Below, in pieces: positions 1 to 63,953 of a stretch of DNA of 64,000 nucleotides. Within the stretch, counting starts at the first letter, position 1, and each line of letters starts with the position of its first letter. The stretch lies in UHGV virus genome UHGV-1366828; one strand, given 5' to 3'. Source of the DNA: a virus. The notes beneath the pieces are model-generated. The model had not been told where the DNA came from and searched no databases. It saw only the letters and a list, made by a program, of their open reading frames with translations. A program made the translations under genes and the position numbers.

Positions 1-2349
1 GGGACATTCTGTAGCCTGCCGTAACCGAGCTACCATTGACAAAATGTTTGCTGTAGACATATCTACTTTGTCGACCTGGTCAACAATACCTGCTTGAATG
101 TTGGAGTAGAATGTTTCCTGTGTGGGGTTCATTTCTACAATCTGCGTAATTATTGTCTTTTCTGGGAGGTCAAGAAGATCTTTCGTTCTTCTTAGTGAAC
201 ACTCGTTAAGCTGTTCCTTTAACGTATCAACATTTCTGTAACCTACAAAATCGTTGTTGAAGAACCCTGTATAGTTACAGTAGTAATACTTAAAGTTACT
301 AAAACTGCAATGTTCCTTACCAATCCACTTCAATGGAATGTAAGCATCAAGAGGACTATTAAGAAGTAACGTTCCCGTTAAAGCTACTCGATACTTTGCA
401 GAAGTTAACTTCAGAAAATTCTTAGACTGAACAGCTGTAGGATTCTTACAACGATGGACTTCATCAATGATAATGAGGTCGAACTTATTTGCGCCTTTAT
501 TGATTCCTTTTACAACATTTGCATCTCTTAAAGTTTCAATGTTTGTTACAACAAAGAATTCATCAATGGTCCTGTTTAGATCAGCAACTCTGTCATTCAC
601 ACTTCCGATTGTGAATTTACCAGATTTTGTAATACGTTGACCTAATATGTAACAACTTTCCTTAGTATGTTTTTCAATTTCTCTTTTCCAGTTGAATTTA
701 AGGTTGTTAACACCACAAATAATTAAACAGTGCTCAATCCCTTCACGCTTTTTCAGTTCGAGAGCCAAGTAAAGCATCTGCAACGTATTATGTGTTACAC
801 AGCACCCTTCGATTAGATACGTCTTTGAAGGGCTGTCAACAGTAATACATCGTCCAACTTTCAAAGTTATGGGCTCAATTTTAGCAAACCGCCTTCTCGG
901 ATTACCTCCATTGCTTCTTGCTCTTAACAACTCTTTCTTACGTGGCAGGGTTACAAACAAGGAAGGGTCGGCTACACGTATGGTTAGACTATAGGACAAT
1001 CCTGTACACTTCCCGTTATATTTAGCTTGTCCTACATGTTTATGACATATTCCTCCTAGGGACTCTACAATTTCACGAACATCGTCACACAATTTCTCAG
1101 AGACAGTTGAGTAATCTAAGTGATTATCCTTAGCAGCATAACCATCTGTGTCAAACAGTCCTCGAAGAACGTCCATTCTAACTTCAACAGTGTTGTACTT
1201 ATAGACATCAGGAATAAATTTGGTGTGAGAAGTACAACCAAACAATCCCAGGTCAAGAAGGTCTTGATGCAAGGGATTTCCAGCTTCTCTTCTGTACGAC
1301 CACCTAGACCCGGCATATAAACTGTTTTGATTAATACTATATTTTATTTCGTCCAATTTTTTATACATAAGATTAGTATTATCTGTCGGCAACCCTAGAT
1401 ATCTGCACACCTCTTTACCTGACCCAATTCTAACGCCGTCCGCATACCATACGTAACCTCTGTTTGTAATAACTTGTCCCTCTTTCTGGCATATTCTATA
1501 GGATATTGGGGCGCACTTTTTCAACTGTAAATCTTCGGGAAGGTTTTCCCTTACTTTGTTTACAATATGTTCATCCACAGTTGTAATATCAATGGATTTT
1601 GAGATGCTACCGTCACCAAGTAAGACCCCTAACAAATAGGGTTGAATTGGGACATTTTGATGAACAAACTGAATGGGTTTTGTTAGGGGCACATAGTAAG
1701 GCGTTTCTTTTGAGTCAATACGTCTGTAAGATTTTCTACAATCATTCTCAAGAAACCACTTAGTAGGAACAACTCTTCCGTCGGATAATAACCACAAATG
1801 GTCTTCGCAACAGTCAACAGTTAAGCCATCTGTGAATGTAACTCTGTACATATTCAGGTTATCGTGGTCATACACTGCTAACACTTTGCAAGGATTGCCC
1901 TCTTTGTCTATAACAAAATCTCCTACTTTTAATTCTCCCATTGTGGTTTTACCCGTAGGAGTATACACACTAGTATCTAAACTAACGGCTTTTCCAAGAC
2001 CGGGTGCGTCAAGAAGTAGCCATTTATCATGAGACAGGCCAAATTTTATCCCGTCGGCTTGATATGGAAACGGAGTTGTTTTAAACTCGCTAAGTTGAAC
2101 ATCTTTAACAGGATGTTTCTTTTCATCAGGCTTCAACTTTAACTCAATATCGTCAAAAACATTAACACTATTTATAATTGAAGCAAGGTCAGTAACAGGG
2201 ACTTCCCACATCTTACTTTTCTTGTCATAGTTAGCTACAGTAACACTGTTTTTAAGTGCTTCTATAATGTCTTTGTTGTACTCAAAGCTAACATACAGAG
2301 AAGAGGTGCCGGGAACCTTGCTGTTTAATTTTTCTTCAATCGTTATCAA
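1..2349 (-). CDS. SNF2-family (DExH) DNA helicase, partial (3' end beyond window start), interrupted in-frame by an intein; probable TTG start about 2349 after an AAGGAG site
   Basis: I hand-translated the minus strand from 2349 down to 421 and it is continuous with no stops. N-terminal part reads ...PYQADGIKFGLSHDKWLLLDAPGLGK (SNF2 motif I). After the intein comes TLQMLYLALELKKREG..., then DLIIIDEVHRCKN (motif II, DEVH) and LTGTLLLNSPLD (motif III). The ORF track lacks it because the stop lies outside the window. Confidence 0.8.
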   Translation of the reverse strand, partial: MITIEEKLNSKVPGTSSLYVSFEYNKDIIEALKNSVTVANYDKKSKMWEVPVTDLASIINSVNVFDDIELKLKPDEKKHPVKDVQLSEFKTTPFPYQADGIKFGLSHDKWLLLDAPGLGKAVSLDTSVYTPTGKTTMGELKVGDFVIDKEGNPCKVLAVYDHDNLNMYRVTFTDGLTVDCCEDHLWLLSDGRVVPTKWFLENDCRKSYRRIDSKETPYYVPLTKPIQFVHQNVPIQPYLLGVLLGDGSISKSIDITTVDEHIVNKVRENLPEDLQLKKCAPISYRICQKEGQVITNRGYVWYADGVRIGSGKEVCRYLGLPTDNTNLMYKKLDEIKYSINQNSLYAGSRWSYRREAGNPLHQDLLDLGLFGCTSHTKFIPDVYKYNTVEVRMDVLRGLFDTDGYAAKDNHLDYSTVSEKLCDDVREIVESLGGICHKHVGQAKYNGKCTGLSYSLTIRVADPSLFVTLPRKKELLRARSNGGNPRRRFAKIEPITLKVGRCITVDSPSKTYLIEGCCVTHNTLQMLYLALELKKREGIEHCLIICGVNNLKFNWKREIEKHTKESCYILGQRITKSGKFTIGSVNDRVADLNRTIDEFFVVTNIETLRDANVVKGINKGANKFDLIIIDEVHRCKNPTAVQSKNFLKLTSAKYRVALTGTLLLNSPLDAYIPLKWIGKEHCSFSNFKYYYCNYTGFFNNDFVGYRNVDTLKEQLNECSLRRTKDLLDLPEKTIITQIVEMNPTQETFYSNIQAGIVDQVDKVDMSTANILSMVARLRQATECP
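787..1989 (-). mobile_element. Intein (about 401 aa) with LAGLIDADG homing-endonuclease domain, inserted in helicase P-loop between GLGK and TLQ
   Basis: Hint block A AVSLDTSVYTPTG..., block B DCCEDHLWLL, LAGLIDADG motifs LLGVLLGDGSIS and LRGLFDTDGY, C-terminal VTHN followed by Thr (+1). Removing it restores canonical GLGKTLQ. The first residue appears to be Ala rather than Cys/Ser. Confidence 0.75.
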
Positions 2350-2457
2350 ACAATTTATCTCCTTTTATAAGGGGTATATAAGAAAGGTAGCTGACAAAGG
2401 TAACCTAACCTTTCAAATAGAAGAAAATGTCAGCTACCCCCGTTGCGTCGTCAAACA

Positions 2458-2772
2458 TCAACTGATACGCCATTTATAGTCGTAATATTTCCGATGAAGG
2501 TTTCCTTTAGATTTAGTTTCCTCGAAATCAATTCTCCGAACACACTTATGAGACATCTTCTTGTGATAAGGGCTACCATAGTAATACTGTTTAAGATACT
2601 TTCTGTTGTAATAGTTGTTCCACCAAACAGCTACAGACGGAGAATCACTAAGCAATCTTTTAAGTTTCTGCTGATATACTTCTTCACGAAAACGACGATA
2701 TTCTGAAGTCCTGTTCAAAAATATTACCCCTTTCTTTATTTCGGGACATGTTTTGCTATCCAACTTACACAT
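2458..2772 (-). CDS. hypothetical protein (104 aa), basic, Tyr-rich
   Basis: Intact ORF in the co-directional gene array; no recognisable motif. The true start may be downstream if the overlapping small ORF is real. Confidence 0.45.
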   Translation of the reverse strand: MCKLDSKTCPEIKKGVIFLNRTSEYRRFREEVYQQKLKRLLSDSPSVAVWWNNYYNRKYLKQYYYGSPYHKKMSHKCVRRIDFEETKSKGNLHRKYYDYKWRIS

Positions 2773-18735: not shown

Positions 18736-21324
18736 TTAATTGGAAGTGGTAAAGGTTAAAGTATTGTCACCTGTAACTCTTGTTAGCGAAAGAATTGTTC
18801 TGTAACCACTTGCATCTACAATATCTTGTTGCTTTGTTATTACATACAATCCGCTAGACACGTGACGTTGACCATAGAATAAGGAGTTTATTCTAACATA
18901 GCTCATTAACATAGCAGGACGTAACAGACCTTTAAGTGTTAACTTCGCTTTGACAGGGAATTGTGTCATCTGTGTCCACCAAGTTTTCTGTGCCTGCGTA
19001 GTTTTATGATATCTGCTAGAAGTTGTTGAGTTAGGTGAGTATTCCGTTGTAACATTTCCTGCGTTGTCTATGTTGTATACATAATCTTCTGTAGGAATCT
19101 GTTGAGAATATTTGTATAGTAGACTCCACGAATCATCATTTTCTATCTGGAAATTCATAACATAGTTACTTGGTGTGTCTCCTACATATCCGGAATATCC
19201 AACATCTACTTCATATACATCAGAGCCACTTAACGATTCCGCAGAAGCGTCTGCTGTAACTTTTACAACTCTAAAGTATGGTCCATTGTATTCGTTTGTT
19301 ATATCATCAACAATGGTTAAGTGATATGTAGATTTTCCTAGAGACGTAGTTTGGTCACCAGAGGGGGACATTTCCGATACAAGATAGTTTAGATATGTTA
19401 TCGGGCTCATTCCCTCTTTAGGTTCTAGATGTGTCTCTCTGTCGTCACCAGCTATAAGTCTTCTAGCAATGGTCTTATTCTTCATTCCAGTGAAGACTTG
19501 TCGCAAGCCATATTTTTCAGAGAACAAGATTTCAATTATCTTGTCGCTGGGCTTACAAACAACTCCAGGGAAGTTATAAGAACGAGATGCTAACTGTAAA
19601 GCATTGCTAGTACAGAACAGAGTATATGTTATTCTCGAAGAAGAAAAATCAATGTTTGAAGTCAGTTTAGTTATGATAGCTTCTTCTTCTCTGAATATGA
19701 AGGATGGCGAGCTGTAATCACCATAACTTATTTTTATTTTACCGTAGCCAACACTACTAAATATCTTGTCCAGTAGATTTGGGTCTTGACCAGGTTCAAT
19801 CTGATATACCATGTTGATTGTGTACTGATTTACTGTACCGTTTACTTTTACTATATTGATACTTTGCATATAGTTAGGATAATCAACCCTGACAGTATTT
19901 TCAGACTTTCTATATTTATATGTACCAAATGTGTAGTTTCCTATTTGTAAAGTGATAAACGGACTTTCAACAAATGTTCCTACACTCAGTAGTCCTGTAG
20001 AACGCTGTGTAGAAATGTTTGTAGGAGTTTCATTTATTGTAACTCTTCTCACAACTTCTGCTTCGTCTACGGGACCAGCACTTCTTAATCTACGCTGTGC
20101 TTCAACATATTCTGCATAAGAGGAGTATTTTTTATTTAAATCAGTGTCATTATCAAATTGTTGTTTGCTAATAATGTTAGAGATTGTTTTCTTCCAGTTG
20201 TCAATGGTTCCGCTTATTGCGTTGCCTAATTTATTAACACCTTCATTGAAAGCATTTTCAACGGAAGAGCCTGTTGACTCGGAATTTTCGGGTCCTATAA
20301 CTCCTGTAGCTGCATCTCTGTAACGAAGAACAACTTGCCAAGAACATTCTCTGTAATAATTTCTAGTTGCTATACCGGTTGGAGTACACTCGACCATTCT
20401 ACCATTTCCAATAAACATTGCAGTATGTCCGTTAGCTCCTGCACCAGATGTGCCCGTAGCATTCCAGACAAGGACGTCTCCGGCTCGCATTCCGGTTCCG
20501 TTATCAATGTTTACCATGGAACGAACATCGGTGAACCCGTTCGCTACAAAACAACGTTTCATGTCGCCTGTATAAGAAGCGCCTGTTTGAACGCCTGCTT
20601 TGTTCCATGCAGAAATAATAAAAGCAGAACAGTCATATGAGGTGGGTCCCCATCTATTTGTCATGCTGTACGTATAACCTTTATTGCACTGAGCAACTGC
20701 CCACTGGATTGCTTTGTCTGTTGCAGTGGGTTGACTTGTTCCGTATAATGAATTTGTTGAAGATGTATAAGGAGCAGTGTACCCACTGTACTTGTTATAG
20801 AAAGCATACGCATGAGATCTACGAACATCATAATTATAAACAGCAGGACGTTCATATTGCTCAAGGACTAAGTCACAAGCAGCACGAACGTCCGTAGCTC
20901 TCTTTAATTGATTTCCCCAAGATGCATTACTAAAGGCATTGTCAGCAAAGGTTAACTGTGTGTCAAGATTTCCAACTGAAGTACCACGTTGTTTTGCAAG
21001 CTCATAAAGGTCTCTTTTATATGTCCACCAAGTCCATTGAGCAAGTCCGTATCCTATAGAATCGTGAACAAATTTATCTTTGGAGTATGCTCCACTATCT
21101 ACCTGTTGAGTATAGTCAGCATCAGACCAACCATATCCGTTTTGAACATTGTTTGCAATAAGTGCACTTTCTGCTTGGAAGTTGCCCATTATACCGGCGA
21201 TGCCTTCAGAGCTGTACCCTTTAGACCGGAAAAATGACCATATCTGTTGTTCAACTGTTTGATTTGTTCTGTTTATAGCGTTAGCTCTTAGTCCGCTGCC
21301 CTCAATGTCTTGATATACTTGCAT
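18736..21324 (-). CDS. baseplate hub / tail-associated lysin (862 aa): N-terminal lysozyme-like domain + Cys-His peptidase (CHAP/NlpC-P60-like) + C-terminal structural domain
   Basis: GIMGNFQAESALIANNVQNGYGW...GYGLAQWTWWTYKRDLYELAKQRG...EQYERPA is paralogous to the domain in the 62538-63953 endolysin. CSAFIISAWNKAG ... GHTAMFIGNG gives the Cys/His peptidase signature. Confidence 0.65.
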   Translation of the reverse strand: MQVYQDIEGSGLRANAINRTNQTVEQQIWSFFRSKGYSSEGIAGIMGNFQAESALIANNVQNGYGWSDADYTQQVDSGAYSKDKFVHDSIGYGLAQWTWWTYKRDLYELAKQRGTSVGNLDTQLTFADNAFSNASWGNQLKRATDVRAACDLVLEQYERPAVYNYDVRRSHAYAFYNKYSGYTAPYTSSTNSLYGTSQPTATDKAIQWAVAQCNKGYTYSMTNRWGPTSYDCSAFIISAWNKAGVQTGASYTGDMKRCFVANGFTDVRSMVNIDNGTGMRAGDVLVWNATGTSGAGANGHTAMFIGNGRMVECTPTGIATRNYYRECSWQVVLRYRDAATGVIGPENSESTGSSVENAFNEGVNKLGNAISGTIDNWKKTISNIISKQQFDNDTDLNKKYSSYAEYVEAQRRLRSAGPVDEAEVVRRVTINETPTNISTQRSTGLLSVGTFVESPFITLQIGNYTFGTYKYRKSENTVRVDYPNYMQSINIVKVNGTVNQYTINMVYQIEPGQDPNLLDKIFSSVGYGKIKISYGDYSSPSFIFREEEAIITKLTSNIDFSSSRITYTLFCTSNALQLASRSYNFPGVVCKPSDKIIEILFSEKYGLRQVFTGMKNKTIARRLIAGDDRETHLEPKEGMSPITYLNYLVSEMSPSGDQTTSLGKSTYHLTIVDDITNEYNGPYFRVVKVTADASAESLSGSDVYEVDVGYSGYVGDTPSNYVMNFQIENDDSWSLLYKYSQQIPTEDYVYNIDNAGNVTTEYSPNSTTSSRYHKTTQAQKTWWTQMTQFPVKAKLTLKGLLRPAMLMSYVRINSLFYGQRHVSSGLYVITKQQDIVDASGYRTILSLTRVTGDNTLTFTTSN

Positions 21325-40052: not shown

Positions 40053-40583
40053 TTATTTGTTCTTGTCCCACTTCTTGTCATACCAGGAAGGAGCATCGTA
40101 TTCAACTAGCCCTGATTTCAATAACGCGATTTCTGTGACTGTCTTTCCGCCGACACTAAATTGAACAAGAATGCCATCATAGCCCTGTTCTCTAGCTATC
40201 TTGTGATAAAATACTTGTAAATCATCCAGACCCGTGGACATTCTATAGAAAGAATCTTTATACTTAATATATACAAAATTTCCTTCTTTAGTACGTTCAC
40301 GAGCAATTATTCGTGTTCCAAGAATATCGTTCAAGTCATTTCCTAAATACACACTGGTTACATCAGGCTGTTTTCCAAGGTCTATGAGATTGACTTTATC
40401 TAAATCTATTACAGAGGTTAACAGGGCTCCTTCGTCATCTGTACCGTCTTGCCAATATGATGTAGCCTCGTCTTTGGAAACAGTCCACCACTCAGCTCTT
40501 CCGTCCCCTTCTACATTCGGCTGTAGACCTTTAATAACCCCTCTATAGACTGGAATTTTTTCTTCACGTAGTAAAAATCTCAT
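40053..40583 (-). CDS. hypothetical protein (176 aa); weak ADP-ribosyltransferase-like hints (VYRG, TSV)
   Basis: Only short motifs; not a secure call. Confidence 0.25.
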   Translation of the reverse strand: MRFLLREEKIPVYRGVIKGLQPNVEGDGRAEWWTVSKDEATSYWQDGTDDEGALLTSVIDLDKVNLIDLGKQPDVTSVYLGNDLNDILGTRIIARERTKEGNFVYIKYKDSFYRMSTGLDDLQVFYHKIAREQGYDGILVQFSVGGKTVTEIALLKSGLVEYDAPSWYDKKWDKNK

Positions 40584-41443
40584 TCGGCGTTCTCCGAATC
40601 TGAAATTAGATTATCAAAATCAATCTGTCGTTTCATTGGCCTGTTCTGCTTTTGGAATCTGTACTCGTTACCCTTCTGGAACTGTGTCTTAGTTCTTGCC
40701 CACTTGTTGGCAACATTAAGTAGATCTTTATCTGCACTAACTGAGATGTCGGGTTGTCCTTCTTCTGGTTTCTCCTCAGGCGGCTGTAGTTGTAGCTGAA
40801 CATCGCCCGTATACTCACGTTGATATATCGCAGGATATATTACATCTGCATACATGTTAGGGTAATGTTGTTCCATGTATCTGATGTAATTAAAGATTAC
40901 AGAAGCTACTTTAGTTAGCCAACTATTATTTGACAACACTAACAGTATATGTTTGCAACCCCTGCCCTTGGTGTCATTTGGGTTTGTAATATTAGAAGGC
41001 CTAGTTTCCTTGTCTCCTACAATAATGTCATGCACGCTTAGATAATAGCCAAATCTATACTGAAAATCGGGACAACTACATCTAACGTAAACATTCTCCC
41101 CGTTAAAGGAGCTTACAAGAGCTCTGATAACACACCGTAGGTTTAATACGTCATTGTTTGCTGCTAGTTGTTTGTGTATTTGGTCAAGTACTTCTCCAAA
41201 ACTGATTCGAACAATATAATCGTTAGTTTCTCCTCTTACTTTTACGTCTACGTCAAGAATGTTATTCTGGAAGAACTTATTCATATCAATGGAATTCATT
41301 TCTCTTACAGAATTAGCAACTCTGCTATGTAGACGTCTTTCATAACGATTCTTTCCACGAAACTGATTTTCAGGAGCATAATTATCTGCGTGTTTTGAGT
41401 TTGAAATCAGCTCTTGTCTCTTATCTTCTAAAAGTTTGTTCAC
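40580..41443 (-). CDS. SWIM zinc-finger domain protein (287 aa)
   Basis: CSCPDFQYR ... CKHILLVL matches the CxC-x(n)-CxH SWIM signature. Confidence 0.55.
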   Translation of the reverse strand: MNKLLEDKRQELISNSKHADNYAPENQFRGKNRYERRLHSRVANSVREMNSIDMNKFFQNNILDVDVKVRGETNDYIVRISFGEVLDQIHKQLAANNDVLNLRCVIRALVSSFNGENVYVRCSCPDFQYRFGYYLSVHDIIVGDKETRPSNITNPNDTKGRGCKHILLVLSNNSWLTKVASVIFNYIRYMEQHYPNMYADVIYPAIYQREYTGDVQLQLQPPEEKPEEGQPDISVSADKDLLNVANKWARTKTQFQKGNEYRFQKQNRPMKRQIDFDNLISDSENAE

Positions 41444-41468: not shown

Positions 41469-42098
41469 TTATTTTGTAGCTACGATTAGTTTTCCTTTTA
41501 CTTCAACATTATCTTGACCAAACACTTCGCCAATCTCTTCAGCGTAGTCCTCAAGCTTCATAAATGTTTGATACTTATCTCCGCCAGTAGGTCTACCTTG
41601 ACCTGTACCAGCACCCGCACCACAACCAACATATACATCAAAATAAGCAGTTCCACCAGGCTTCAAAATTGAGTAAATATTTGCTATGATTTCATTTACT
41701 CTAATGTCTTTTTCTTTTACAACATTCAGAACATTAGCGCAAGTTGCTGTGTCAGTGTGTCCGCCGACTTCGTCGAGTTTGTCAAGAGAAGCACTCTGCT
41801 CTTCTGCACTTTGATTATACTTATCAAACCCAATATAGTCTACGCCCTTTTCAGCTAAGAAATTAGCAATCTGAGCCTGAGTTGTTGCTTCCCCACAACC
41901 GTAGTCAAAATTAACAGTCCCGGGCTTCCAGTTACGAACGTTCTTGAATAGAGCAGGGACTCTACCCATTCCTTTATTTGCTACGCCGTTACCATGAGCA
42001 GTTGACTTGGAAGTGAACTCCTGTTCCTTGTCATAGGAAAATCTTCCTTCTTCCAAGGCCTTTAGCTTGTCGAAAGCTTCACTAATAATATAGTTCAT
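41469..42098 (-). CDS. class I SAM-dependent methyltransferase-like protein (209 aa)
   Basis: Motif I FDYGCGEA, motif II VDYIGFD, motif III ILKPGGTAYF. Confidence 0.5.
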   Translation of the reverse strand: MNYIISEAFDKLKALEEGRFSYDKEQEFTSKSTAHGNGVANKGMGRVPALFKNVRNWKPGTVNFDYGCGEATTQAQIANFLAEKGVDYIGFDKYNQSAEEQSASLDKLDEVGGHTDTATCANVLNVVKEKDIRVNEIIANIYSILKPGGTAYFDVYVGCGAGAGTGQGRPTGGDKYQTFMKLEDYAEEIGEVFGQDNVEVKGKLIVATK

Positions 42099-42443: not shown

Positions 42444-43181
42444 TTACTCCTCAAATAGATTTATAAACTTCCCTGTGTATATGTAATGTTCAAGGGACAA
42501 TTTTCTTGACAAACAATTCGTTAACGCTTCCTTCAATAAAGAAAGCTCTCCTCGGTCACGTAACGTTTTAAAGATTTCATTCCCTCTACCGTATTCTCCT
42601 TCAATAGAAATTGAATTCTTTCGCATTAAGTAGAGGGCATCTAAAACATCAGTAATCTGCTCGTAGTCCTTTGACGTAATTGCCGCGTGAATTCTTTCAG
42701 TCCAAGCATCTAATTCTTGTGTTAGATCTCGCTTCTCAATCGTAATTGGTTTGGGTTCTTTCACCCACTTATTTCTACGAATAGAATAAATACCGTTAGA
42801 TTGAACGGACGAATGTAAATCTTCAACATAGAGTTCAACAGGAATTTCTTTTATCTTTATGTCAAATTCTTTATTGAAAGCTGTCTTCTTTAGATTAAAG
42901 ACTAACGTCTGTATATCTTCAGGAACACCTTCTGTTAGTTCAGTGTTAACAATTAAGTGAACATCGATGTCGGAATGCTGTGTATAGTTGTAAGATGCAT
43001 TACTTCCTACCAAAACTACATCTACAATATGCATCGGTATTTCAACATACTCTTCAAAATTGTCTGCAATTTCAAGTAGCTTTTGTCTAACTTCAGGTAT
43101 CAATGTGTTATCTTTCCATAACTTTGGGTTTAAAGTTTCATGCAACTGAAAATCTTCAAGTACGTTCTTCATATGTCTCAT
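42444..43181 (-). CDS. nucleotidyltransferase (Pol-beta superfamily) domain protein (245 aa)
   Basis: VLVGSNASYNYTQHSDIDVHLIV matches the minimal NTase fold signature (GS..x9-13..D.D). Confidence 0.55.
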   Translation of the reverse strand: MRHMKNVLEDFQLHETLNPKLWKDNTLIPEVRQKLLEIADNFEEYVEIPMHIVDVVLVGSNASYNYTQHSDIDVHLIVNTELTEGVPEDIQTLVFNLKKTAFNKEFDIKIKEIPVELYVEDLHSSVQSNGIYSIRRNKWVKEPKPITIEKRDLTQELDAWTERIHAAITSKDYEQITDVLDALYLMRKNSISIEGEYGRGNEIFKTLRDRGELSLLKEALTNCLSRKLSLEHYIYTGKFINLFEE

Positions 43182-43450
43182 AAAAGATCCGCCAATCTAA
43201 TAATGTCTGAACTAGAAATCTTATTATTATGGTGAAGAGCAGTATGTGCGCTGCTTCCGTGTTCAGAGCTTTTTCTTACCAGACTAAGATTAGTTATACT
43301 ATAATTAGAGTGGTCTTTATCTTCATGATGTAACACCCAATCATCAGGGTCAATTGAAACTCCTGTAAGATACTGTACTAAAGCACACACTACTTTTTTG
43401 GCTTCGGTCTGCCCTCTAAATCCTTCTTCTAGTAATTTAAATCTCATTCT
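43178..43450 (-). CDS. small HNH endonuclease (about 90 aa); real start probably the internal Met MRFKLLEEG (the 135-aa ORF overlaps QueH)
   Basis: WVLHHEDKDHSNYSITNLSLVRKSSEH gives the HNH pattern (HH..D..N...NL....H). Confidence 0.5.
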   Translation of the reverse strand, partial: RMRFKLLEEGFRGQTEAKKVVCALVQYLTGVSIDPDDWVLHHEDKDHSNYSITNLSLVRKSSEHGSSAHTALHHNNKISSSDIIRLADLL

Positions 43451-43967
43451 TTGAATACTCACACCCACAATAATTCTGTTGATATAAATTATACTTCTCG
43501 CACAGTTGCAATGATCTAGGAAACAGATATCCGAAATCAAACGGCATATACATAACTCCCACAGACCCGCCAACAGCGGTTCCAATACTGTTTATAACAG
43601 CTGAATCTTTATACGGACTGATTGTTAATGTAGTTGAAAAATATCCAAATCCATTATTGTTTGCATATATTGCAGCACCCTTCAATCTCTGACCGATACA
43701 TACCTTGCATCTTTTTCCACCCTCGGGTTCATTACTTAAAGAAGAACATGCGTTATAATATTCCTCCGGATAGAAATCTGCAATAACTACCGGTACATTA
43801 TAAAGTTTACCGAGTCGGATAAGCTCGTCGGATCTTTTATAGTATTCAATTTCATCTGTAATACAAGGATTGTAATAATACAACGTTATATCAAAATACT
43901 TTGAGTACTCATCAATAACAGCACTACTACAGGGTGCGCAACAAGCATGAAGTAATAATTTATCCAT
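43437..43967 (-). CDS. queH: epoxyqueuosine reductase QueH (DUF208)-like protein (about 176 aa from MDKLLLHACCAPCS)
   Basis: N-terminal LLLHACCAPCS plus the downstream CKVC / CGCE cysteine pairs, as I recall for the DUF208/QueH family; size fits. Confidence 0.55.
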   Translation of the reverse strand: MDKLLLHACCAPCSSAVIDEYSKYFDITLYYYNPCITDEIEYYKRSDELIRLGKLYNVPVVIADFYPEEYYNACSSLSNEPEGGKRCKVCIGQRLKGAAIYANNNGFGYFSTTLTISPYKDSAVINSIGTAVGGSVGVMYMPFDFGYLFPRSLQLCEKYNLYQQNYCGCEYSKNEI

Positions 43968-43984
43968 CTGTTCAGTTCCTCCGA

Positions 43985-45397
43985 TCAATTCTTTTTCCAC
44001 ATGTAACATGACTGACCACAATCATATATCTCTACAAAACTGTGTGCGATCATTAACTCATCGTTTGATGTTCCTTTACCATAATGTGTTCCAAATAGCT
44101 GGTCAAAGCCTCTTTGTCTTAACAGGTTGTCTGTAATATGTTGACCCGTGTTTATGTTAAACCAGTGTCGTGTTGGAATACCATAATCGCGAAGTTCAAA
44201 CCCCAAGGAAGTATAAACGTCGCCGTTAAATTTACTGTTATCACAATAGGATATAATGGACGACGGAGAATAGTTCTTTACAAAATAACTAAATAACTTT
44301 TCAGCTCCGCCAACTACATATCTGTGAGAACAGTATCTTATAAGCTCGTATTCGTAATTCTTGTTATATCTTGGACGACCGAACGTCATAATTGAAACTA
44401 GTTCATCATTACAGTAAAGTCCCAAATCAATTGTGCTTTTAGCATAACCTTGTAGATGATATTTGTTCAGATAATTTATACAATCTTTCTTGTTGACTTG
44501 TTTTACAACACAGTTACGAGCATATACTTTTTCTCTGGGCAGAAGCAAAGAAACAATTTTATCCCAATCATCCCAATCCCAAACATGAATACATCTATAG
44601 CCGTTATCTTGAGCTACTTTACTCTTCTTATAATGATAATCTTTCTGAAGTGTTGTTGACCCAGGAATAGGACAGAATGTCACGTTGTGACAAGGCCAAG
44701 GATTTATTTCTATAAGAATGTCGTTTACTTTGAAGTCGTATTTAAAATGTTTGTTGTCATATCCGATGTAGAATTCTCTTGTATATTCAATTCCTGCAGT
44801 ATCCAACAATTCTGAAAACTTGGCGTTAGGCTTACTATCATTTGTATATTTTGCAAGGGCAAAAGAATTTACAACTCCATACTTGTCAAGGTTTGTAGCT
44901 GACCTTGCATGTTTAGCATGCTCAATCTTTTCTGGAACATTGAAATAATGTTTGTATCGTTCTTCAATTAGATGTTGTAATTCTTCATGAGATTTTTTAC
45001 CCCATGCAGCTTTACAACCTTCCGACACCTTTTCATAATGTTCTTCTTTTGTTATCCCCTTGCTTTGTAGATTGGCAAGCATCGTAGCGTAAACTTGTTT
45101 GTCATATTTTTCTTTGCTTCCTGCATTCTTATACTTAGTTTTAAGAACTAACCTTGCAGACTGCTTGCGTGGCTTTCTTATACCGTATTCTTTTATGACT
45201 TTATCTAATGTCCAAGATGTAATGTTGTACTTCTTCATCAGAAAGTCATAAGTACAGTTTTTATTCAAATATAAATCCGTAATTTCTTCACGTGGAATTT
45301 TTGACAATACATTCTTTTCAAACTTTTCTCTGTTAATTCTTTTAAGAGTTTCTGATGTTCCATTAGACATTTTACTGTTACTCCTGTGTGTAAACAA
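43985..45397 (-). CDS. endonuclease-like protein, paralog A (470 aa): N-terminal module + conserved C-terminal domain shared with the 45485-46987 gene
   Basis: C-terminal about 230 aa nearly collinear with paralog B (GYRCIHVWDWDDWDKIVSLLLPREKVYARNCVVKQV ... YELIRYC ... GGAEKLF.YFVK.YSP.S..SYCD.SKF.G.VY..LGF). EINPWPCHN + YHYKKSK is reminiscent of a PD-(D/E)xK-type nuclease core. Confidence 0.5.
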   Translation of the reverse strand: MFTHRSNSKMSNGTSETLKRINREKFEKNVLSKIPREEITDLYLNKNCTYDFLMKKYNITSWTLDKVIKEYGIRKPRKQSARLVLKTKYKNAGSKEKYDKQVYATMLANLQSKGITKEEHYEKVSEGCKAAWGKKSHEELQHLIEERYKHYFNVPEKIEHAKHARSATNLDKYGVVNSFALAKYTNDSKPNAKFSELLDTAGIEYTREFYIGYDNKHFKYDFKVNDILIEINPWPCHNVTFCPIPGSTTLQKDYHYKKSKVAQDNGYRCIHVWDWDDWDKIVSLLLPREKVYARNCVVKQVNKKDCINYLNKYHLQGYAKSTIDLGLYCNDELVSIMTFGRPRYNKNYEYELIRYCSHRYVVGGAEKLFSYFVKNYSPSSIISYCDNSKFNGDVYTSLGFELRDYGIPTRHWFNINTGQHITDNLLRQRGFDQLFGTHYGKGTSNDELMIAHSFVEIYDCGQSCYMWKKN

Positions 45398-45484: not shown

Positions 45485-46987
45485 TCAACTGAAAAATGTG
45501 TACTTGGCTTGACCCGCATCATATACCTCTACAAAACCGTGTTGAATCATCAGTTCTCTATTTGATGTGCCTTTACCATAATTGGTATGAAACAGATTGT
45601 CAAAGCCCACTTTGTTTACAGAAGAATCTAGTATATGTTGTTTACTATTCATGTTGTACCAGTGTTTACTAATATTTATACTTTCCAAGGTCATGTTTAA
45701 TTTCTGGTACACATTACCAGAAAATTTGCTCATATCACAGTAGGAAACAACCGATTTTGGAGAATACTTCTTTACAAAATAATCAAACAGTTTCTCCGCT
45801 CCTCCAATAACAGACTTACAACTACAATAACGAATCAACTCGTATTCATACTTATCTGTATACCGAGGTTTACCAAACGTCATCAAAGAGATTAAATCGT
45901 CATTGTAAAATAGACCGACTGCTATGTCCGAAGATATATAACCTTGTAAATGATAGTTATTTAGAAACTCTTTCGTTTCTTCTTTAGGTAGTTCTTTAAC
46001 AGTACATTTTCTGGCATATACTTTTTCTTGAGGACGAAGTAAAGAAATTATCTTCCCCTTATCATCCCAGTCCCAAATATGAATACACCTGTAACCATTC
46101 TGAGAAGCTAACCTAGATTTGTCTCTATGATATGTAGGACTTTTAACGTTATCATCACCAAAAGGTGACCATGTTGAATTGTGTGTAGCAGAAGGATTTA
46201 CTTCTACTAGTATATTTTGTCCTGTTAATTCAAAATCAAAACTTTTGTTAATAAGTGTTTTTTCTCTACTGAATTCTATGTTGTTATCAGACAACAATAT
46301 TCCAAATTCTTGATTAGGAGAAGATAGACTGCTGTTCCCCTTACTAAATTGACATTGAGGAAGCAATGTAGGAAACTCTACTCCATACTTTTCTAAGCAT
46401 GTTTGCTTCATGCTCTCTATAGCTTTTTCACGACTGCCAGGAAGCTGAGAAACATTTGTTATACCGTATCGTTCAATCAAGTTATTTTTCTGAGATTCTG
46501 CTATATGATCATAGGCTGCAGAAATTGAACCATAAGTTCTAATAAAACCTTCTTGAACTAGGTCAACACGTTGAAAAGGATTGTCTACACCATATCGTTC
46601 TTGGCAAGTCTTTTTAATTTTCTTCCGAATATCTGTGTTACCCGAAGCTGATGGTGTCCCGTATCTTTCAATACACGTTTCCTTAATCTTTTCTGTGTTG
46701 TTGTAATTAGGGTCTCCATATCTAGACTCTTTGGATTGCTTTATCCGATTCTTTATCGTATCGGATTTTGACGGATTGTCTACACCGTACTTCTCTATGC
46801 AGGTATATCTAGTTTCCTGTTGTCTACTATGAATCGGAATGCCTTGTTTCTCAAGAGCATTAACAACTACATACTTTGACGTATTATAATGTTTAGAAAT
46901 ATAATCCGCAGAGTGCGAACTATACAACCTTTCCAGTTCTTCTTTGTTTACAAAATCAAGAAATAGCTGTGTTTTATTTTTTCTCAT
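45485..46987 (-). CDS. endonuclease-like protein, paralog B (500 aa) with 4-5 N-terminal repeats C(I/L)E(K/R)YGV.NP...K.K.T
   Basis: Repeats CIEKYGVDNPSKSD / CIERYGTPSASGN / CQERYGVDNPFQ / ERYGITNVSQ / CLEKYGVEFPTL, then the conserved C-terminal domain shared with paralog A. Confidence 0.5.
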   Translation of the reverse strand: MRKNKTQLFLDFVNKEELERLYSSHSADYISKHYNTSKYVVVNALEKQGIPIHSRQQETRYTCIEKYGVDNPSKSDTIKNRIKQSKESRYGDPNYNNTEKIKETCIERYGTPSASGNTDIRKKIKKTCQERYGVDNPFQRVDLVQEGFIRTYGSISAAYDHIAESQKNNLIERYGITNVSQLPGSREKAIESMKQTCLEKYGVEFPTLLPQCQFSKGNSSLSSPNQEFGILLSDNNIEFSREKTLINKSFDFELTGQNILVEVNPSATHNSTWSPFGDDNVKSPTYHRDKSRLASQNGYRCIHIWDWDDKGKIISLLRPQEKVYARKCTVKELPKEETKEFLNNYHLQGYISSDIAVGLFYNDDLISLMTFGKPRYTDKYEYELIRYCSCKSVIGGAEKLFDYFVKKYSPKSVVSYCDMSKFSGNVYQKLNMTLESINISKHWYNMNSKQHILDSSVNKVGFDNLFHTNYGKGTSNRELMIQHGFVEVYDAGQAKYTFFS

Positions 46988-47136: not shown

Positions 47137-48156
47137 TCAGGCCTTGATCTTACCCGCTACCAGGAGGCTAGGATTGAGAAGCTTCAGGTCGTACATCGTA
47201 CTCCAGCCTTGTGTGGTTCCACCATCGGCGAACTGAAGCAGCTGAGTAGGAACAACGCTCATGTAAGGAGCATAAACAGCGGCGGAGCTCATTAAATCGC
47301 TGCCGTTGACACCTACAATGAACTTACCAGCTTCAAGAGCAGGAGAAACGAACACCTTAAGAGAACCGAGAGTACCAGCGAAGTAAGGACCGTTAACATC
47401 GCTCACAGGAGCAGGAGTCCAGTCACGAATGAAAGCAAACACCGGAAGAAGGTCGCTGGCGCAAATCATGTAGTTAGGAACAAATTTCTTTGTACGGTCG
47501 TACACTACGCGCTTGGCATCTTCAACAGTTTCCATGAATCCCTGATAGTGCTCTGTTTTGGAAACACCTACATTAGGAGTCTTGCTCCATTCAAGGGTTG
47601 TGTCGGTCGGGGTATTGTCGATAAGAAGCTGAACAACTTCTGTGTCGATTTCATATTCGAGCTGACCAACAGCCTTCTCTGCAAGCTGGTCACCAAGGTC
47701 GAAACCGTAGTCGGTCTTAGCCTGGAAAGCAGCAATCTGAGAGTAGTAAACAGCGATACGACGAGCCTTCGCAACAAGAGCGATATTCTTCATCTCTGCC
47801 TTGAGCATCGGAAGGTCGTTCTGAGGAACAACTACGTTGTCGTAGTAATAAGCTACACGGTCAGTGGCAACAAGAGTTGTGGTAATTGTCTTGCCGTCAG
47901 CGCCAACATTCACATAAGTGGGATCACCAGTTGCGTGAGTAACCTTAACGTCGTACTTAACGCCGTCCTTCTCAAACGCGCCCTTAACAACAGGAGTCCA
48001 GGAAAGAGCAAGAGAAGCACCAGCCGTCGGAGTTTCAACAACACGGTCACCAGTGTAATCAGCATCGACATCGCCGAGAGCGAACGGGCTGTTCAGAAGC
48101 TTACCAGCAGTGGTCTGACCCTTGGTCTTACCAGCAGTATACTCAATGTAAGTTAT
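47137..48156 (-). CDS. major capsid protein (T4 gp23-like), exon 2 (339 codons)
   Basis: The frame stays open upstream of the annotated TTG back to a TAG at 48223-48225; no Shine-Dalgarno site; sequence continues exon 1 across the junction (...PMSSMSGF|ITYIEYTAGKTKG, compare T4 ...PMNSPTGQVFALRAVYGKDP); C-terminal ...AAVYAPYMSVVP resembles gp23 ...GIYYAPYVALTP. Confidence 0.7.
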   Translation of the reverse strand: MTYIEYTAGKTKGQTTAGKLLNSPFALGDVDADYTGDRVVETPTAGASLALSWTPVVKGAFEKDGVKYDVKVTHATGDPTYVNVGADGKTITTTLVATDRVAYYYDNVVVPQNDLPMLKAEMKNIALVAKARRIAVYYSQIAAFQAKTDYGFDLGDQLAEKAVGQLEYEIDTEVVQLLIDNTPTDTTLEWSKTPNVGVSKTEHYQGFMETVEDAKRVVYDRTKKFVPNYMICASDLLPVFAFIRDWTPAPVSDVNGPYFAGTLGSLKVFVSPALEAGKFIVGVNGSDLMSSAAVYAPYMSVVPTQLLQFADGGTTQGWSTMYDLKLLNPSLLVAGKIKA

Positions 48157-49151
48157 CAAATGTGTTACGAATAATTCATCTATCTTTATACTAATTTTTT
48201 GAAGGGATTTGTTAACCTTCCTCTAACATAACCTTCAGGAGGATCGCCAATAAACATATGCTCTTCTTTTCCGTTATTCCACCAACGAGAACCTTTATGT
48301 GCTTCTATACTTCTTTGTATAGAATATTCCGTGGGTTTCTGCCCTTTACTAGATTCTCTCATCTTGAGAATTGTTTCTTCTGAGCGTTTCTTACCAGTAT
48401 TCGCTTTAGCTCTTTTTAGTTTAGTTTCTTCAGATTGTTTTTTTCCTGTCCAGTAAGCTAACTTGTACCTTAATTCTGGAACAAGATTAACATTACCGTC
48501 TCCACCATCAGTTAGATTATACCCATTAGGATATCTACACTGTAGCGTTTCAATCCAGAAACTTTCTTTTTCGTTTAATTCTTCAAGAGTTTCAGCTGTA
48601 TCAATAAGCTCTCGCGAAAAATTTTCTAGCCCATAGAACTTAATGCTACTTTTAATATAAGTTCCGCTAGTAATGTAATTCTCATCAAGTTTTGGAAAAG
48701 AATATTTATGTTTACCAACATACACTTTATGTGTAATCAGGTTTGTTAGTTTATACACATAACCATACATATTTTAATCTCCTCTAAAGATAAAATATAT
48801 TAAAAAGTAGTAATTCAAATATTAGAGGTATTTGAAAAAGGGAGCTAACCTCTGTCCTACTTTATAACTAAGTTATAAAGATATCAAATTATTCTCTTTA
48901 TGTTACCATAAAGTTCAGACTATATCATCATCCTATATTGTTTTATCCTCTATAGGACGCCTCGCACTTGGACCTCATTTGAGGTCTACTCTACTCTTTT
49001 ACTCGCATAAGTTTTTCTCTTATGCTACAATTTCGATAGTCGTTGAGCCTTCTCTAATTATTAGAGCTTGGCTGCTGATTGTCCCGTCGGGATTTTCCAG
49101 CAATTCACGAGGTTTTTTACTATATATTACTATATAGGGATTCTAAACTTA
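48157..49151 (-). mobile_element. Group I intron (995 nt) carrying a GIY-YIG homing endonuclease ORF
   Basis: P1: exon GGAUUU pairs with intron GAAUCC (U.G at the splice site), and the intron starts with an in-frame UAA. Core elements P AAUUGCUGGAAA, Q AAUCAGCAGC, R GCUCAACGACUAUCG and S GAUAUAGUCUG are present. Intron ends ...CACAUUUG (omega-G). The HE ORF lies 3' of S. Confidence 0.7.
48186..48770 (-). CDS. GIY-YIG homing endonuclease with NUMOD3 DNA-binding repeats (194 aa), intron-encoded
   Basis: YGYVYKLTNLITHKVYVGKH (GIY...YIG), R..E...N.. core, tandem GKKQSEETKLK / GKKRSEETILK NUMOD3-like motifs; AGAGGAG site upstream. Confidence 0.75.
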   Translation of the reverse strand: MYGYVYKLTNLITHKVYVGKHKYSFPKLDENYITSGTYIKSSIKFYGLENFSRELIDTAETLEELNEKESFWIETLQCRYPNGYNLTDGGDGNVNLVPELRYKLAYWTGKKQSEETKLKRAKANTGKKRSEETILKMRESSKGQKPTEYSIQRSIEAHKGSRWWNNGKEEHMFIGDPPEGYVRGRLTNPFKKLV

Positions 49152-49439
49152 AAATCCAGACATAGAGCTCATCGGGTGGACAATTACTAGCTCATTAGCA
49201 ATTAAGTTAGGAAGAGCAACAGTTGTAAGGTTCAGGCAGAATTTCTTATAGAGTCCGAGATCTGAACGCTGTGTGCCAGAAGCAGCATCAAAAGCTTCAG
49301 AAAGGAACTTTGAAGTATTGTCAAGCACCTTAGCAATAACTAGCTTCTTGTGGTTATCCATCTTCTCGCCGTTGTGAGTTCTGCCGTAAACGGATTCAGA
49401 AACTGCAAGACGACCTTTGTATTGTTCTAAAAGATTCAT
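49152..49439 (-). CDS. major capsid protein (gp23-like), exon 1 (96 codons)
   Basis: KKLVIAKVLDNTSKFL ... LTTVALPNLIANELVIVHPMSSMSGF parallels the T4 gp23 N-terminus (KQAIIAKIFENQEKDF ... MVRRAIPNLIAFDICGVQPMNSPTG). Confidence 0.7.
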
Positions 49440-62537: not shown

Positions 62538-63953
62538 TTAAAATGTTCCAGAATCTACCCAACCATAAACTGTTGAACCCTGCCCCGGAACCTTAACTAA
62601 ATGATACGGGTGTTTACCGTTACGGTTAATAGCTGTAATTGTAGCCTTTCCTGGTCTGCATCTAAATCCAAATGCAAATGCTGATGAACTTGTATAGTGT
62701 GTGTTACCCTTAAAATTGACTACATCGCCCACTTCAGCAACTTTTGGAGCAACAGGAGTTGCAGGAGTCGGCGTAGGGGCAGGGGTTACATTTCCGTACT
62801 TTTTTAGGAATGTTTCTCCCATATTGGCTCTTGCCGCTTTCACTGCCTCGGACTGGTTTGCAGGTCGTTCGTAGTTTACTAAAATGAAGTCCGATGCTGC
62901 ACGAACATCTTTTGCATTCTTTATTGTGTCGACTAGACCTTGATAACCTGCCATTTCGGAAACCATAAATTCCAACTGCATCTTCGGGTCGCCAATTGAT
63001 CTGTTATTGGACTTAGCGTAGTTGTATAGTGCTTTCTTCCGTGACCAGTATGTCCACTGTACTAGACCATAGCCAACAGCATCGTTAACAAAGTTTGTGT
63101 ACGTACCATTGTCTACGCTTTCAGTATATGTCTTGTCGTTGTACCCCAAAGCTGCTTCGTAGGAATTCTGCATATTATTTGCTTGTAAAGCACTTTCTGC
63201 ATAAAGGTTTCCCATGATTGCAGCTACACCATACGGATTGTTGTAAACAGACATTAGGTAGTCCCACATCTGTTTTTCTGTCATTGCAGTTGTATTTCCA
63301 ACCGGAACAGCAGGAATAATATTCGATACATCGGTTGTTGTAGAACCTTCTGCAAGTACAATGTCCTTGATGTTAATCGGTGACATGATGCTGTTTGTAC
63401 CGCTTGCATTCTTATCGATAACTACGCGGTCACCGTTTATAGCTAATACAACCCAGACGTCATTCTTTACAAAATCAGGAATAAATCCTCCAGTGTACCA
63501 GGTATTTCCAATAACTTTAACTTTACTTCCAACCTGAATATTCGTGTTAGGAACAGTTATTGAAGGTGCGGCAGGAACACTTGTAGCAGCATCATCATAT
63601 TTCGGAAGTCCATATCCTCTAATATATCTGCTGTTAACTTGTCTGTTGGTAAATGCAACTGAATTATTGCAGTTTCCTTCAATAATTGTCATGTTCGTTC
63701 CCACAACAGAATAAACAATTCCTACGTGGTCAGCTACTCCTGTATTGTCTCCAAAGCCAGAATCTTGCCAATCATAGAAGATAATATCTCCTGGCTTTGG
63801 AGTATACGAATCATCTTCCATCCAACGGTTATGTTGCTGGAATAGTTGGATCATTCTAGGACAACTACATTCTGGGTAGATAATATCAGTGGCTCCGACC
63901 TTTTGTGCCACAGCAGATACAAATGTTGCACACCAAGGGTCAGTGTACGTCAT
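62538..63953 (-). CDS. endolysin (471 aa): CHAP peptidase + SH3-like + lysozyme-like domain + C-terminal SH3-like binding domain
   Basis: CHAP Cys/His (DPWCATFVS ... DHVGIVYS); AAIMGNLYAESALQANNMQNSYEAALGYND...GYGLVQWTYWSRKKALYNYAKSNN...NYERPA is paralogous to the hub-protein domain. The reading frame stays open to the window edge, so the N-terminus could extend further. Confidence 0.65.
   Translation of the reverse strand: MTYTDPWCATFVSAVAQKVGATDIIYPECSCPRMIQLFQQHNRWMEDDSYTPKPGDIIFYDWQDSGFGDNTGVADHVGIVYSVVGTNMTIIEGNCNNSVAFTNRQVNSRYIRGYGLPKYDDAATSVPAAPSITVPNTNIQVGSKVKVIGNTWYTGGFIPDFVKNDVWVVLAINGDRVVIDKNASGTNSIMSPINIKDIVLAEGSTTTDVSNIIPAVPVGNTTAMTEKQMWDYLMSVYNNPYGVAAIMGNLYAESALQANNMQNSYEAALGYNDKTYTESVDNGTYTNFVNDAVGYGLVQWTYWSRKKALYNYAKSNNRSIGDPKMQLEFMVSEMAGYQGLVDTIKNAKDVRAASDFILVNYERPANQSEAVKAARANMGETFLKKYGNVTPAPTPTPATPVAPKVAEVGDVVNFKGNTHYTSSSAFAFGFRCRPGKATITAINRNGKHPYHLVKVPGQGSTVYGWVDSGTF

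Follow-up and report, generated by a model that had tools for sequence, protein, structure and literature searches.

What use would a bacteriophage have for an enzyme from the end of a transfer RNA (tRNA) modification pathway? The question is raised by the viral genome UHGV-1366828, of which a stretch of 64,000 nucleotides was analyzed (this whole stretch is called the window below), and in which a gene for a QueH-type protein lies in the structural region. QueH is the cobalamin-independent epoxyqueuosine reductase, and QueG is its cobalamin-dependent counterpart, which catalyzes the same reaction in the canonical pathway with an unrelated fold and cofactor. Judged from its sequence, the window protein appears to be a working reductase of the QueH type, a conclusion that is well supported, as is its place in a 7-deazaguanine and queuosine gene repertoire of the phage. 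The answer favored here, held tentatively, is that it reduces epoxyqueuosine (oQ) to queuosine (Q) on tRNA, with service in a DNA-modification route based on the enzyme DpdA as a somewhat less probable alternative.

43437..43967, minus strand: QueH coding sequence (176 residues plus stop), a phage-associated short form of the epoxyqueuosine reductase family
43978..43982, minus strand: Shine-Dalgarno sequence GGAGG, 10 nt 5′ of the QueH ATG, read from the sequence

A sequence-only reading of the window had already placed a QueH-like open reading frame (ORF) at these coordinates, and both the call and its position hold on the minus strand. The coding sequence runs from an ATG at 43967 to a TAA at 43437-43439, and the protein begins MDKLLLHACCAPCS. 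An alternative TTG start at 44021 appears in the ORF list; the ATG is taken as the start because GGAGG stands upstream of it, because the TTG version overlaps the upstream gene, and because the orthologues on two related contigs (L005 and L007) begin MDK or MDR. Pairwise ratios of nonsynonymous to synonymous substitution (dN/dS) among eight orthologues range from 0.03 to 0.11, with dS reaching ∼3 and synonymous sites near saturation. Such ratios indicate strong purifying selection, and the gene is accordingly functional in the phage and not a decaying passenger. An identical protein is encoded on eight contigs, the longest of 140 kb, and sequence cluster P0001 by itself has 140 member sequences.

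The family assignment had first been proposed from the motifs LLLHACCAPCS, CKVC, and CGCE, and it withstood each comparison. The protein matches the Pfam profile for QueH (PF02677, also DUF208 and IPR003828) at E 1.6e-54 and 185.1 bits against a cut-off of 23.5, with residues 4-175 aligned to positions 1-175 of the 175-position profile; this was its sole Pfam match, and no NCBIfam model matched it. Among all PDB sequences, phmmer returned only the QueH of Thermotoga maritima and its mutants (7lc5, 7lc7, and 9deu represent this enzyme; 7lc5 at E 1.7e-22). An alignment of the window protein with 120 database homologues and the T. maritima sequence places its seven cysteines, C9, C10, and C13 (CCAPC), C87 and C90 (CKVC), and C167 and C169 (CGC), on the conserved cysteines of the family and on the T. 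maritima motifs, and each reaches 100% conservation in the phage set as well as in the cellular one, with T. maritima itself carrying Asp at position 13. These cysteines are the presumed ligands of the metal center. If a column counts as invariant when the two subsets share its residue at 90% conservation or more, 26 positions qualify and all are kept; besides the cysteines these are H7, P12, E82, R86, R94, T112, T113, S117, P118, K120, N126, G129, D144, F145, S152, Y162, Q164, G168, and S172. An AlphaFold2 model (mean predicted local distance difference test, pLDDT, 93.1) superposes on 7lc5 with a template-modeling (TM) score of 0.91 and a root-mean-square deviation of 1.5 Å over 177 columns, the next-best folds being TtuA and LarE, related PP-loop-type Fe-S enzymes, at TM ≤0.6. 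Family membership is thus borne out by profile, invariant residues, and fold. Neither of the outcomes named beforehand as refuting it, a missing DUF208 match or cysteine motifs that fail to align with the Fe-S ligands of QueH, occurred. QueG had no match in Pfam or PHROGs scans of the window or its relatives.

The window protein nevertheless belongs to a distinct version of the family. Homologues form two groups: 45 short sequences (172-190 residues, 54-97% identical to the window QueH) and 76 long ones (at least 199 residues, ∼50% identical) of the type seen in cellular genomes. The short form lacks the 20-25-residue N-terminal extension of the long form, a trait it shares with T. maritima QueH, whereas the gut Firmicutes homologues are ∼25 residues longer. 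It also carries the substitutions S143F, K146G, K147Y/F, and R163Q and has lost two residues. Conservation at these positions is 95-99% among the 76 long-form sequences (99% for K146, K147, and R163), and T. maritima is basic at the equivalents of the last three (R146, K147, and R165). The altered positions adjoin the invariant D144 and F145 and stand four residues ahead of the C167/C169 ligands. The window protein has G146, Y147, and Q163, a pattern (FGYQ, FGFQ, FSYQ, and similar) shared by 43 sequences with F143 that form one clade in a neighbor-joining tree (23 of 30 bootstrap replicates) and that occur, within the present data, on phage contigs only.

Patterns from the short-form clade were also run against one genome for each of 185,579 cellular species. 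The best 80 matches came from metagenome-assembled genomes and isolates of Clostridia and Bacilli (Faecalibacterium, Christensenellaceae, and Gemmiger among them) and shared no more than 53% identity with the window QueH; the PFDFG motif was absent from these 80, all of which read DFKK, with R163 wherever readable. These best 80 matches suggest that cells may lack the short form. Nor was it found in the deposited phage records of INPHARED, where the best matches were at most 51% identical and none of the four whose sequence was read has PFDFG. Records L147-L149, labeled 'Bacteriophage sp.' in INPHARED, were considered as further phage QueH genes and set aside, being the cellular long form on unverified fragments that carry no DpdA or transporter gene. 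Megablast of the 12-kb QueH neighborhood against INPHARED gave only a 45-nt match of chance level, so that no near sequenced isolate was found there. The lambdoid temperate Escherichia phage HannyBb encodes, in its nin region, a 37%-identical QueH homologue annotated as 'hypothetical protein' (PP925841.1 33011-33697); its 143-148 loop, YNWRKQGG, is unlike both the cellular and the short form, and it falls outside the short-form clade. The window QueH also matches phrog_3217 (PHROGs v4, 'unknown function') at E 3e-26, the match spanning only residues 25-173, and QueH-like genes have therefore been present, unrecognized, in phage databases.

The DNA around the gene is that of a phage, as the sequence-only reading had supposed. 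All credible window genes lie on the minus strand, and in descending coordinates they comprise an endolysin and two holins, a T4-type portal, an S77-type prohead protease, a Gp23-like capsid protein, tail sheath, tail tube, and very large tail or fiber proteins; the window thus covers the late region of a myovirus with a Gp23 capsid. The placement of QueH inside a structural operon was correct as to the late structural region and needs one qualification: a small variable island separates the capsid gene from the tail genes, and it is there that QueH lies, flanked by homing-endonuclease genes. QueH was found on six IMG/VR viral contigs at 74-99% identity, and in five of these and one contig from ENA (L001-L005 and L007) the order is capsid gene, QueH, and nucleotidyltransferase, with or without endonucleases.

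What the remainder of such a genome holds was read from close relatives. The window itself (PHROGs run on ∼40 of its 57 ORFs, ∼50 ORFs scanned overall) contains no tRNA gene, and no Q-pathway family besides QueH was matched among the ∼50 ORFs scanned or by tblastn of the whole window. The survey followed IMG/VR contig 3300045988_128299 (133.6 kb, QueH 97% identical) in six 10-kb steps upstream of the position of the window's right end; ∼87 kb of the contig was covered (37-124 kb), and Pfam was run on 20 larger ORFs there. About 30 kb from QueH the contig carries an array of 20 tRNA genes (L116 931-8275) that includes Asn(GUU), Asp(GUC), and Tyr(GUA). Genes for tRNA-Asn and tRNA-Tyr occur in all four close relatives examined, and tRNA-Asp in some; tRNA-His was not found in the relatives' array, and His accounts for 1% of window codons. 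The same array has unusual predicted anticodons, Ile(UAU) and Cys(ACA), and most of its other tRNAs have U34.

The replication module of these relatives runs DnaB, primase, DNA polymerase A, a PF02592 transporter, a nucleoside 2-deoxyribosyltransferase-like protein, a 307-residue protein, and SDR. The transporter of contig 128299 belongs to the YhhQ/QPTR family (60.7 bits, cut-off 27.2). The 307-residue protein (L138 7970-8890) has no Pfam match; it is identified as DpdA from its match to phrog_887, 'queuine tRNA-ribosyltransferase', at E 3.3e-39 and from its identity of 35% with gp7 of Streptococcus phage Dp-1 (E 1e-44) and of 27% with DpdA from phage CAjan. DpdA and QueH share a contig in IMG/VR 128299 and in ENA scaffold_965, the latter an 80-kb sequence in which QueH (84% identical) adjoins the capsid gene and which also has a block of polymerase, transporter, nucleoside 2-deoxyribosyltransferase, GDSL, DpdA, and SDR genes. 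A 153-kb relative (L006, L139) has a DpdA 91% identical and a transporter 75% identical. With 95-99% protein identity among the relatives and conserved gene order, the tRNA array, transporter, and DpdA probably belong to the genome of the window as well.

Genes for the earlier steps were sought and not found. With E. coli QueA and Tgt as queries, tblastn (E≤0.01) found nothing in the window or in any phage locus (on the 133.6-kb relative up to 123.9 kb), and Pfam and PHROGs scans of window and relatives gave no match to either family. The QueF-like protein, QueC, QueD, QueE, FolE, and QueT of Dp-1 likewise gave nothing in the window or the phage loci at the same threshold. The sequence-only reading had advised a search for queC, queD, queE, dpdA, and tgt elsewhere in the genome; of these, dpdA turned up in the close relatives and not in the window, and the others in neither. 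The phage QueH thus differs from that of T. maritima and other cells in being phage-encoded, with no tgt or queA partner found in the same genome; in terms of the canonical bacterial pathway, the host would supply those functions.

Other genes of the relatives include those for an RNA ligase, serine hydroxymethyltransferase, peptide deformylase, an anaerobic ribonucleotide reductase-like enzyme, RecA, and a clamp loader. The serine hydroxymethyltransferase is full-length (514 bits) and the RNA ligase has an OB domain (these and the peptide deformylase lie among L103 8003-9193, L120 4144-5319, and L124 6777-7427). The anaerobic reductase proteins, resembling NrdD and NrdG and accompanied by two glutaredoxin-like proteins, were identified by eye (L120 7177-9655), and such genes suggest a strictly anaerobic host. 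A radical SAM (S-adenosylmethionine) enzyme gene (PF04055, Fer4_12) stands directly 5′ of one for a 178-residue protein with a repeated cysteine motif (CTGLCFGCTGCTSGCKN...; L124 8390-9721, L120 17-553), and the two look like a phage peptide-maturase and substrate pair.

A similar gene set recurs in a second, diverse lineage of ∼60-kb phages, whose gene order is that of Dp-1: polymerase A, in some a glycosyltransferase-like gene, DpdA, an SGNH/GDSL hydrolase, a QPTR transporter, beta clamp, Cas4-like protein, RecU, RecA, and then QueH. DpdA and a transporter lie within 10 kb in nine of the eleven QueH-bearing loci of these phages; the other two loci are one phage, with a gene for a PF12822 (QrtT-family) transporter at the edge of the stretch. 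The transporter of the ∼60-kb lineage scores 64 bits against TIGR00697 (cut-off 51), passing the equivalog cut-off of the NCBIfam model 'queuosine precursor transporter', and the DpdA proteins of the window's relatives and of the Dp-1-like QueH phages are 35-43% identical to Dp-1 gp7 and encoded beside DNA polymerase A. Between the two lineages QueH is better conserved (54-67% identity) than DpdA (∼35%) or the transporter (∼30%). Two further loci, L016 and L017, have DpdA, GDSL, and transporter genes with no QueH within 10 kb, the transporter of L016 being 97% identical to that of the QueH-bearing L013; QueH is therefore accessory, not obligatory, to the module of DpdA plus transporter. A glycosyltransferase-like protein of ∼299 residues is encoded between polymerase A and dpdA (L145 2624-3520; also L014, L017, L018, L144, L146, and L156); it matches phrog_2456 at E 9e-9 and phrog_842, which holds the T4 beta-glucosyl-HMC alpha-glucosyltransferase, at E 3e-5, and its position beside dpdA hints at a glycosylated DNA base.

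These phages resemble the published DpdA systems, in particular the 'DpdA only, plus or minus YhhQ' group (PMC6884629, PMC10516641), in encoding DpdA together with a Q-precursor transporter, and the replication module of the Dp-1-like members follows Dp-1 itself. Dp-1 differs in having queF-like, queC, queD, queE, folE, and QueT genes and no QueH, with dPreQ1 in its DNA, whereas in the QueH phages none of the synthesis genes was found and QueH is present. The genome therefore fits the group described as 'DpdA without preQ0 synthesis, plus transporter' (Hutinet 2019), to which QueH is a new addition.

On what substrate, then, does the enzyme act? In the favored reading, the gene would derive from an ancient capture from gut Firmicutes and have since been retained by a ∼140-kb Gp23-capsid myovirus that infects gut or rumen anaerobes. 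The Tgt and QueA of the host would supply oQ-tRNA, and the putative reductase would carry out a two-electron reduction of the epoxide during infection, converting oQ to Q at position 34 of tRNAs with GUN anticodons, among them the phage's own tRNA-Asn and tRNA-Tyr and, in some strains, tRNA-Asp. The YhhQ/QPTR importer of the phage would boost the precursor supply, and QueH would relieve a bottleneck at the last step, which in the host could be limiting or absent, as host QueG needs cobalamin. Parsimony speaks for tRNA as the substrate: since no QueA or Tgt homologue was found, host-made oQ-tRNA is the only known source of the epoxide, and no new chemistry is required. NAY codons make up 20% of window (late-gene) codons, which implies that the four amino acids decoded through Q matter to the phage, and the RNA ligase and peptide deformylase genes of the relative genome, as RNA-related functions, add support.

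Several observations weigh against action on tRNA. The sequence-only reading had offered two proposals, the tuning of host tRNA to phage codon usage and a new DNA-modification route; relatives with a 97%-identical QueH yielded support for each, in the tRNA array on one side and in DpdA with its transporter on the other, yet the codon argument proved weak, as NAU is only 52-64% of NAY overall and the capsid and tail-tube genes favor NAC. The tRNA array, transporter, and DpdA were all seen in close relatives, outside the window, and sampled stretches of the ∼60-kb lineage have at most one tRNA gene each, none with a GUN anticodon. The phage clade has lost the basic K146, K147, and R163 along with two further residues; these three may take part in tRNA binding, a role that we infer, and their loss would be unexpected if the mode of tRNA binding were unaltered. 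We know of no fitness difference between oQ and Q in tRNA. DpdA is present in every short-form lineage with enough sequence. The Q-pathway genes of DpdA phages have so far been linked to DNA modification (Hutinet 2019, PMC6884629; 2023, PMC10516641), and earlier proposals that phage Q genes boost tRNA modification gave way to DNA modification once a DpdA was found in the viruses concerned.

Somewhat less probable than tRNA, and still a serious contender, is a route in which the short-form QueH serves DpdA-based 7-deazaguanine DNA modification as a tailoring or salvage enzyme. A QPTR or QrtT transporter would import a precursor, QueH would reduce an epoxy-queuine-type compound, as free base or nucleoside or within DNA, and DpdA would install the base to give deoxyqueuosine (dQ) or a derivative, to which in some Dp-1-like phages the adjacent glycosyltransferase-like protein could add a sugar. 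Co-occurrence speaks for it: in two related myovirus lineages (IMG/VR 128299, 118865, and 3300021400_000130; ENA scaffold_965) one and the same contig carries DpdA, a Q-precursor transporter, and the short QueH, as do the nine Dp-1-like loci described above, although this may partly reflect common descent of a homologous replication module, and the loci L016 and L017 show that the module does without QueH. The greater conservation of QueH across lineages and the kinship of these DpdA proteins with Dp-1 gp7 (phrog_887, E 3e-39; dPreQ1 in Dp-1 DNA) fit the route, as do the conserved DpdA neighbors, namely the nucleoside 2-deoxyribosyltransferase-like protein, the SGNH/GDSL hydrolase (an esterase), and SDR. 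The loss of three basic residues near the active site, with aromatics gained, fits a substrate with no tRNA backbone; all family invariants are kept, however, so that neither the chemistry nor the Q-type moiety has probably changed. The glycosyltransferase-like gene found beside DpdA in many Dp-1-like contigs gains significance from the hydroxyls of the Q side chain, which preQ0 and preQ1 do not have, and tailoring of dPreQ1 after its insertion has a precedent in DpdM and DpdN.

The supply of the epoxide is a difficulty for this route. No QueA was found in the window, in the ∼87 kb covered of contig 128299, or in the Dp-1-like loci, and the phage is therefore left with no evident way to make the epoxide on DNA; free oQ or epoxyqueuine is not known to be abundant. 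The route also requires a DpdA able to insert a Q-type base. An earlier analysis found no homologues of QueA, QueG, or QueH, the enzymes peculiar to the final steps of Q synthesis, in the viruses analyzed, and dQ was undetected in any phage DNA tested (Hutinet 2019, PMC6884629); full-text literature searches brought up no subsequent account of a phage QueH or of dQ in DNA. The most specific form of the proposal, in which the short-form QueH acts off tRNA and, with an imported precursor and DpdA, leads to dQ or to a glycosylated derivative in the Dp-1-like phages that bear the glycosyltransferase gene, is rated less likely than not, only slightly below the route as a whole.

A third explanation keeps the fold and metal sites of QueH and gives them a different reductive substrate or role, such as another 7-deazaguanine intermediate or counter-defense against host 7-deazaguanine systems. 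The remodeling of the 143-148 loop and of R163 is specific to a clade found on phage contigs and not among the best 80 cellular matches, and the gene shifts position in the genome along with homing endonucleases, all of which could accompany a change of function. Against this stand the retention of all 26 family-invariant positions, a fold essentially identical to that of QueH, a neighborhood that offers no candidate for another substrate, and co-occurring transporter families that are specific for Q precursors; a changed role is thus improbable. That the gene is a contaminant, a product of chimeric assembly, or a decaying passenger of the mobile endonuclease genes that flank it is the least credible explanation by a wide measure and is effectively refuted by synteny and selection: several INPHARED 'Bacteriophage sp.' matches are indeed the cellular long form on unverified fragments, but the short form occupies the same capsid-tail position on numerous contigs that are independent of one another and come from several samples and sources, with low dN/dS at saturated synonymous divergence, an intact ORF, a good ribosome-binding site, and the 140 members of its cluster.

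The variable island that holds QueH and the capsid gene upstream of it have the following features, in ascending coordinates:

41469..42098, minus strand: SAM-methyltransferase-like gene (209 residues), in the same island; PF13489 Methyltransf_23 E 4.4e-7; not in L001 or L005
42444..43181, minus strand: pol-beta-fold nucleotidyltransferase (245 residues); phrog_36119 E 1.6e-44, PF01909 E 5.9e-5
43178..43447, minus strand: small HNH-like ORF (89 residues), with an 11-nt overlap with the QueH 3′ end
43985..45397, minus strand: homing-endonuclease-like gene directly 5′ of QueH; phrog_3339 E 5e-56, phrog_559 'HNH endonuclease' E 1.6e-48
45485..46987, minus strand: second, paralogous homing-endonuclease-like gene (DUF7487) in the interval between capsid gene and QueH; phrog_3339 E 7.7e-75, PF24308 E 4.3e-31
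47137..49439, minus strand: Gp23-like major capsid gene; PF07068 E 2.9e-21, split by a group I intron

The endonuclease gene next to QueH is present in L001, L003, and L004 and not in L002, L005, or L007. The tandem endonuclease genes are ∼48% identical over ∼350 residues to each other's relatives, and in related phages there is a single copy or none. Between the two window genes lies a strong hairpin resembling a terminator (45439-45407); apart from it, the promoter and terminator scan gave background level. On the other side of QueH, the HNH-like ORF is called as a gene on contigs with an identical QueH and has a weak match to phrog_15471, 'HNH endonuclease' (E 4e-4). The nucleotidyltransferase is the conserved downstream neighbor of QueH in L001-L005 and L007. 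It was considered as a CCA-adding or tRNA-repair partner and set aside, a search of PDB sequences being empty and its model (pLDDT 80) having as best PDB structure an ANT-type adenylyltransferase at a TM score of 0.27, which is not significant; no functional link is drawn. The methyltransferase-like gene was rejected as an analogue of DpdM, which has a DUF3109 metal-binding fold and no Rossmann fold; the gene is also missing in some relatives.

Beyond the methyltransferase-like gene lies one for a SWIM-finger protein (287 residues; window 40580-41443), and then the tail genes. On a 140-kb contig with an identical QueH (L152 12525-14621) the SWIM-finger counterpart has 698 residues and an intein, PF14890. 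The capsid intron (48896-49161; Rfam RF00028, 106 bits) carries a GIY-YIG/NUMOD3 homing endonuclease gene at 48186-48770; the capsid gene is uninterrupted in L005 and L007 and has a differently sized insertion at the same place in L002 and L004. One intron, one intein, and three or more free-standing endonuclease genes thus fall in the region of the QueH island. Farther off, the endolysin (62538-63953, minus strand) and an 862-residue protein of the tail region (18736-21324, minus strand) have in common an N-terminal lytic domain, phrog_20388, and the latter is probably a tail-associated lysin. Window positions 1-2460, with no listed ORFs, are not non-coding but belong to a large minus-strand ORF running off the edge.

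The position of QueH is not fixed even within this group of phages. In the 153-kb relative the gene is 74% identical and lies between two early genes that are adjacent in the window lineage (L006 10001-10525; compare L103 4868-5694), adjoining a deoxyribosyltransferase-like gene and one for an NCS2 nucleobase permease. QueH has thus moved, or been acquired twice, within one phage group. A radical SAM gene near this copy was examined as a possible QueE or queuine lyase; its matches are only to generic radical-SAM and 'Fe-S oxidoreductase' families.

Phage 'queuosine' genes were long assumed to serve tRNA and were then tied to DNA modifications that protect against restriction. Here phages abundant in the gut and rumen carry an intact QueH gene, maintained by purifying selection and belonging to a clade of its own with an altered loop close to the substrate, together with DpdA and a Q-precursor importer, a gene set that suggests competition between phage and host for the micronutrients queuine and preQ1 in the gut. 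Should the substrate be tRNA, this would be the first phage gene found to act late in Q synthesis, and the phages concerned supply tRNA-Asn, tRNA-Tyr, and tRNA-Asp themselves. A role in DNA modification or salvage would instead point to a Q-type DNA base yet to be discovered and a new class of substrate for a poorly understood metalloenzyme, and should that base be dQ, this would be the first recruitment of a late, Q-specific part of the tRNA pathway to DNA.

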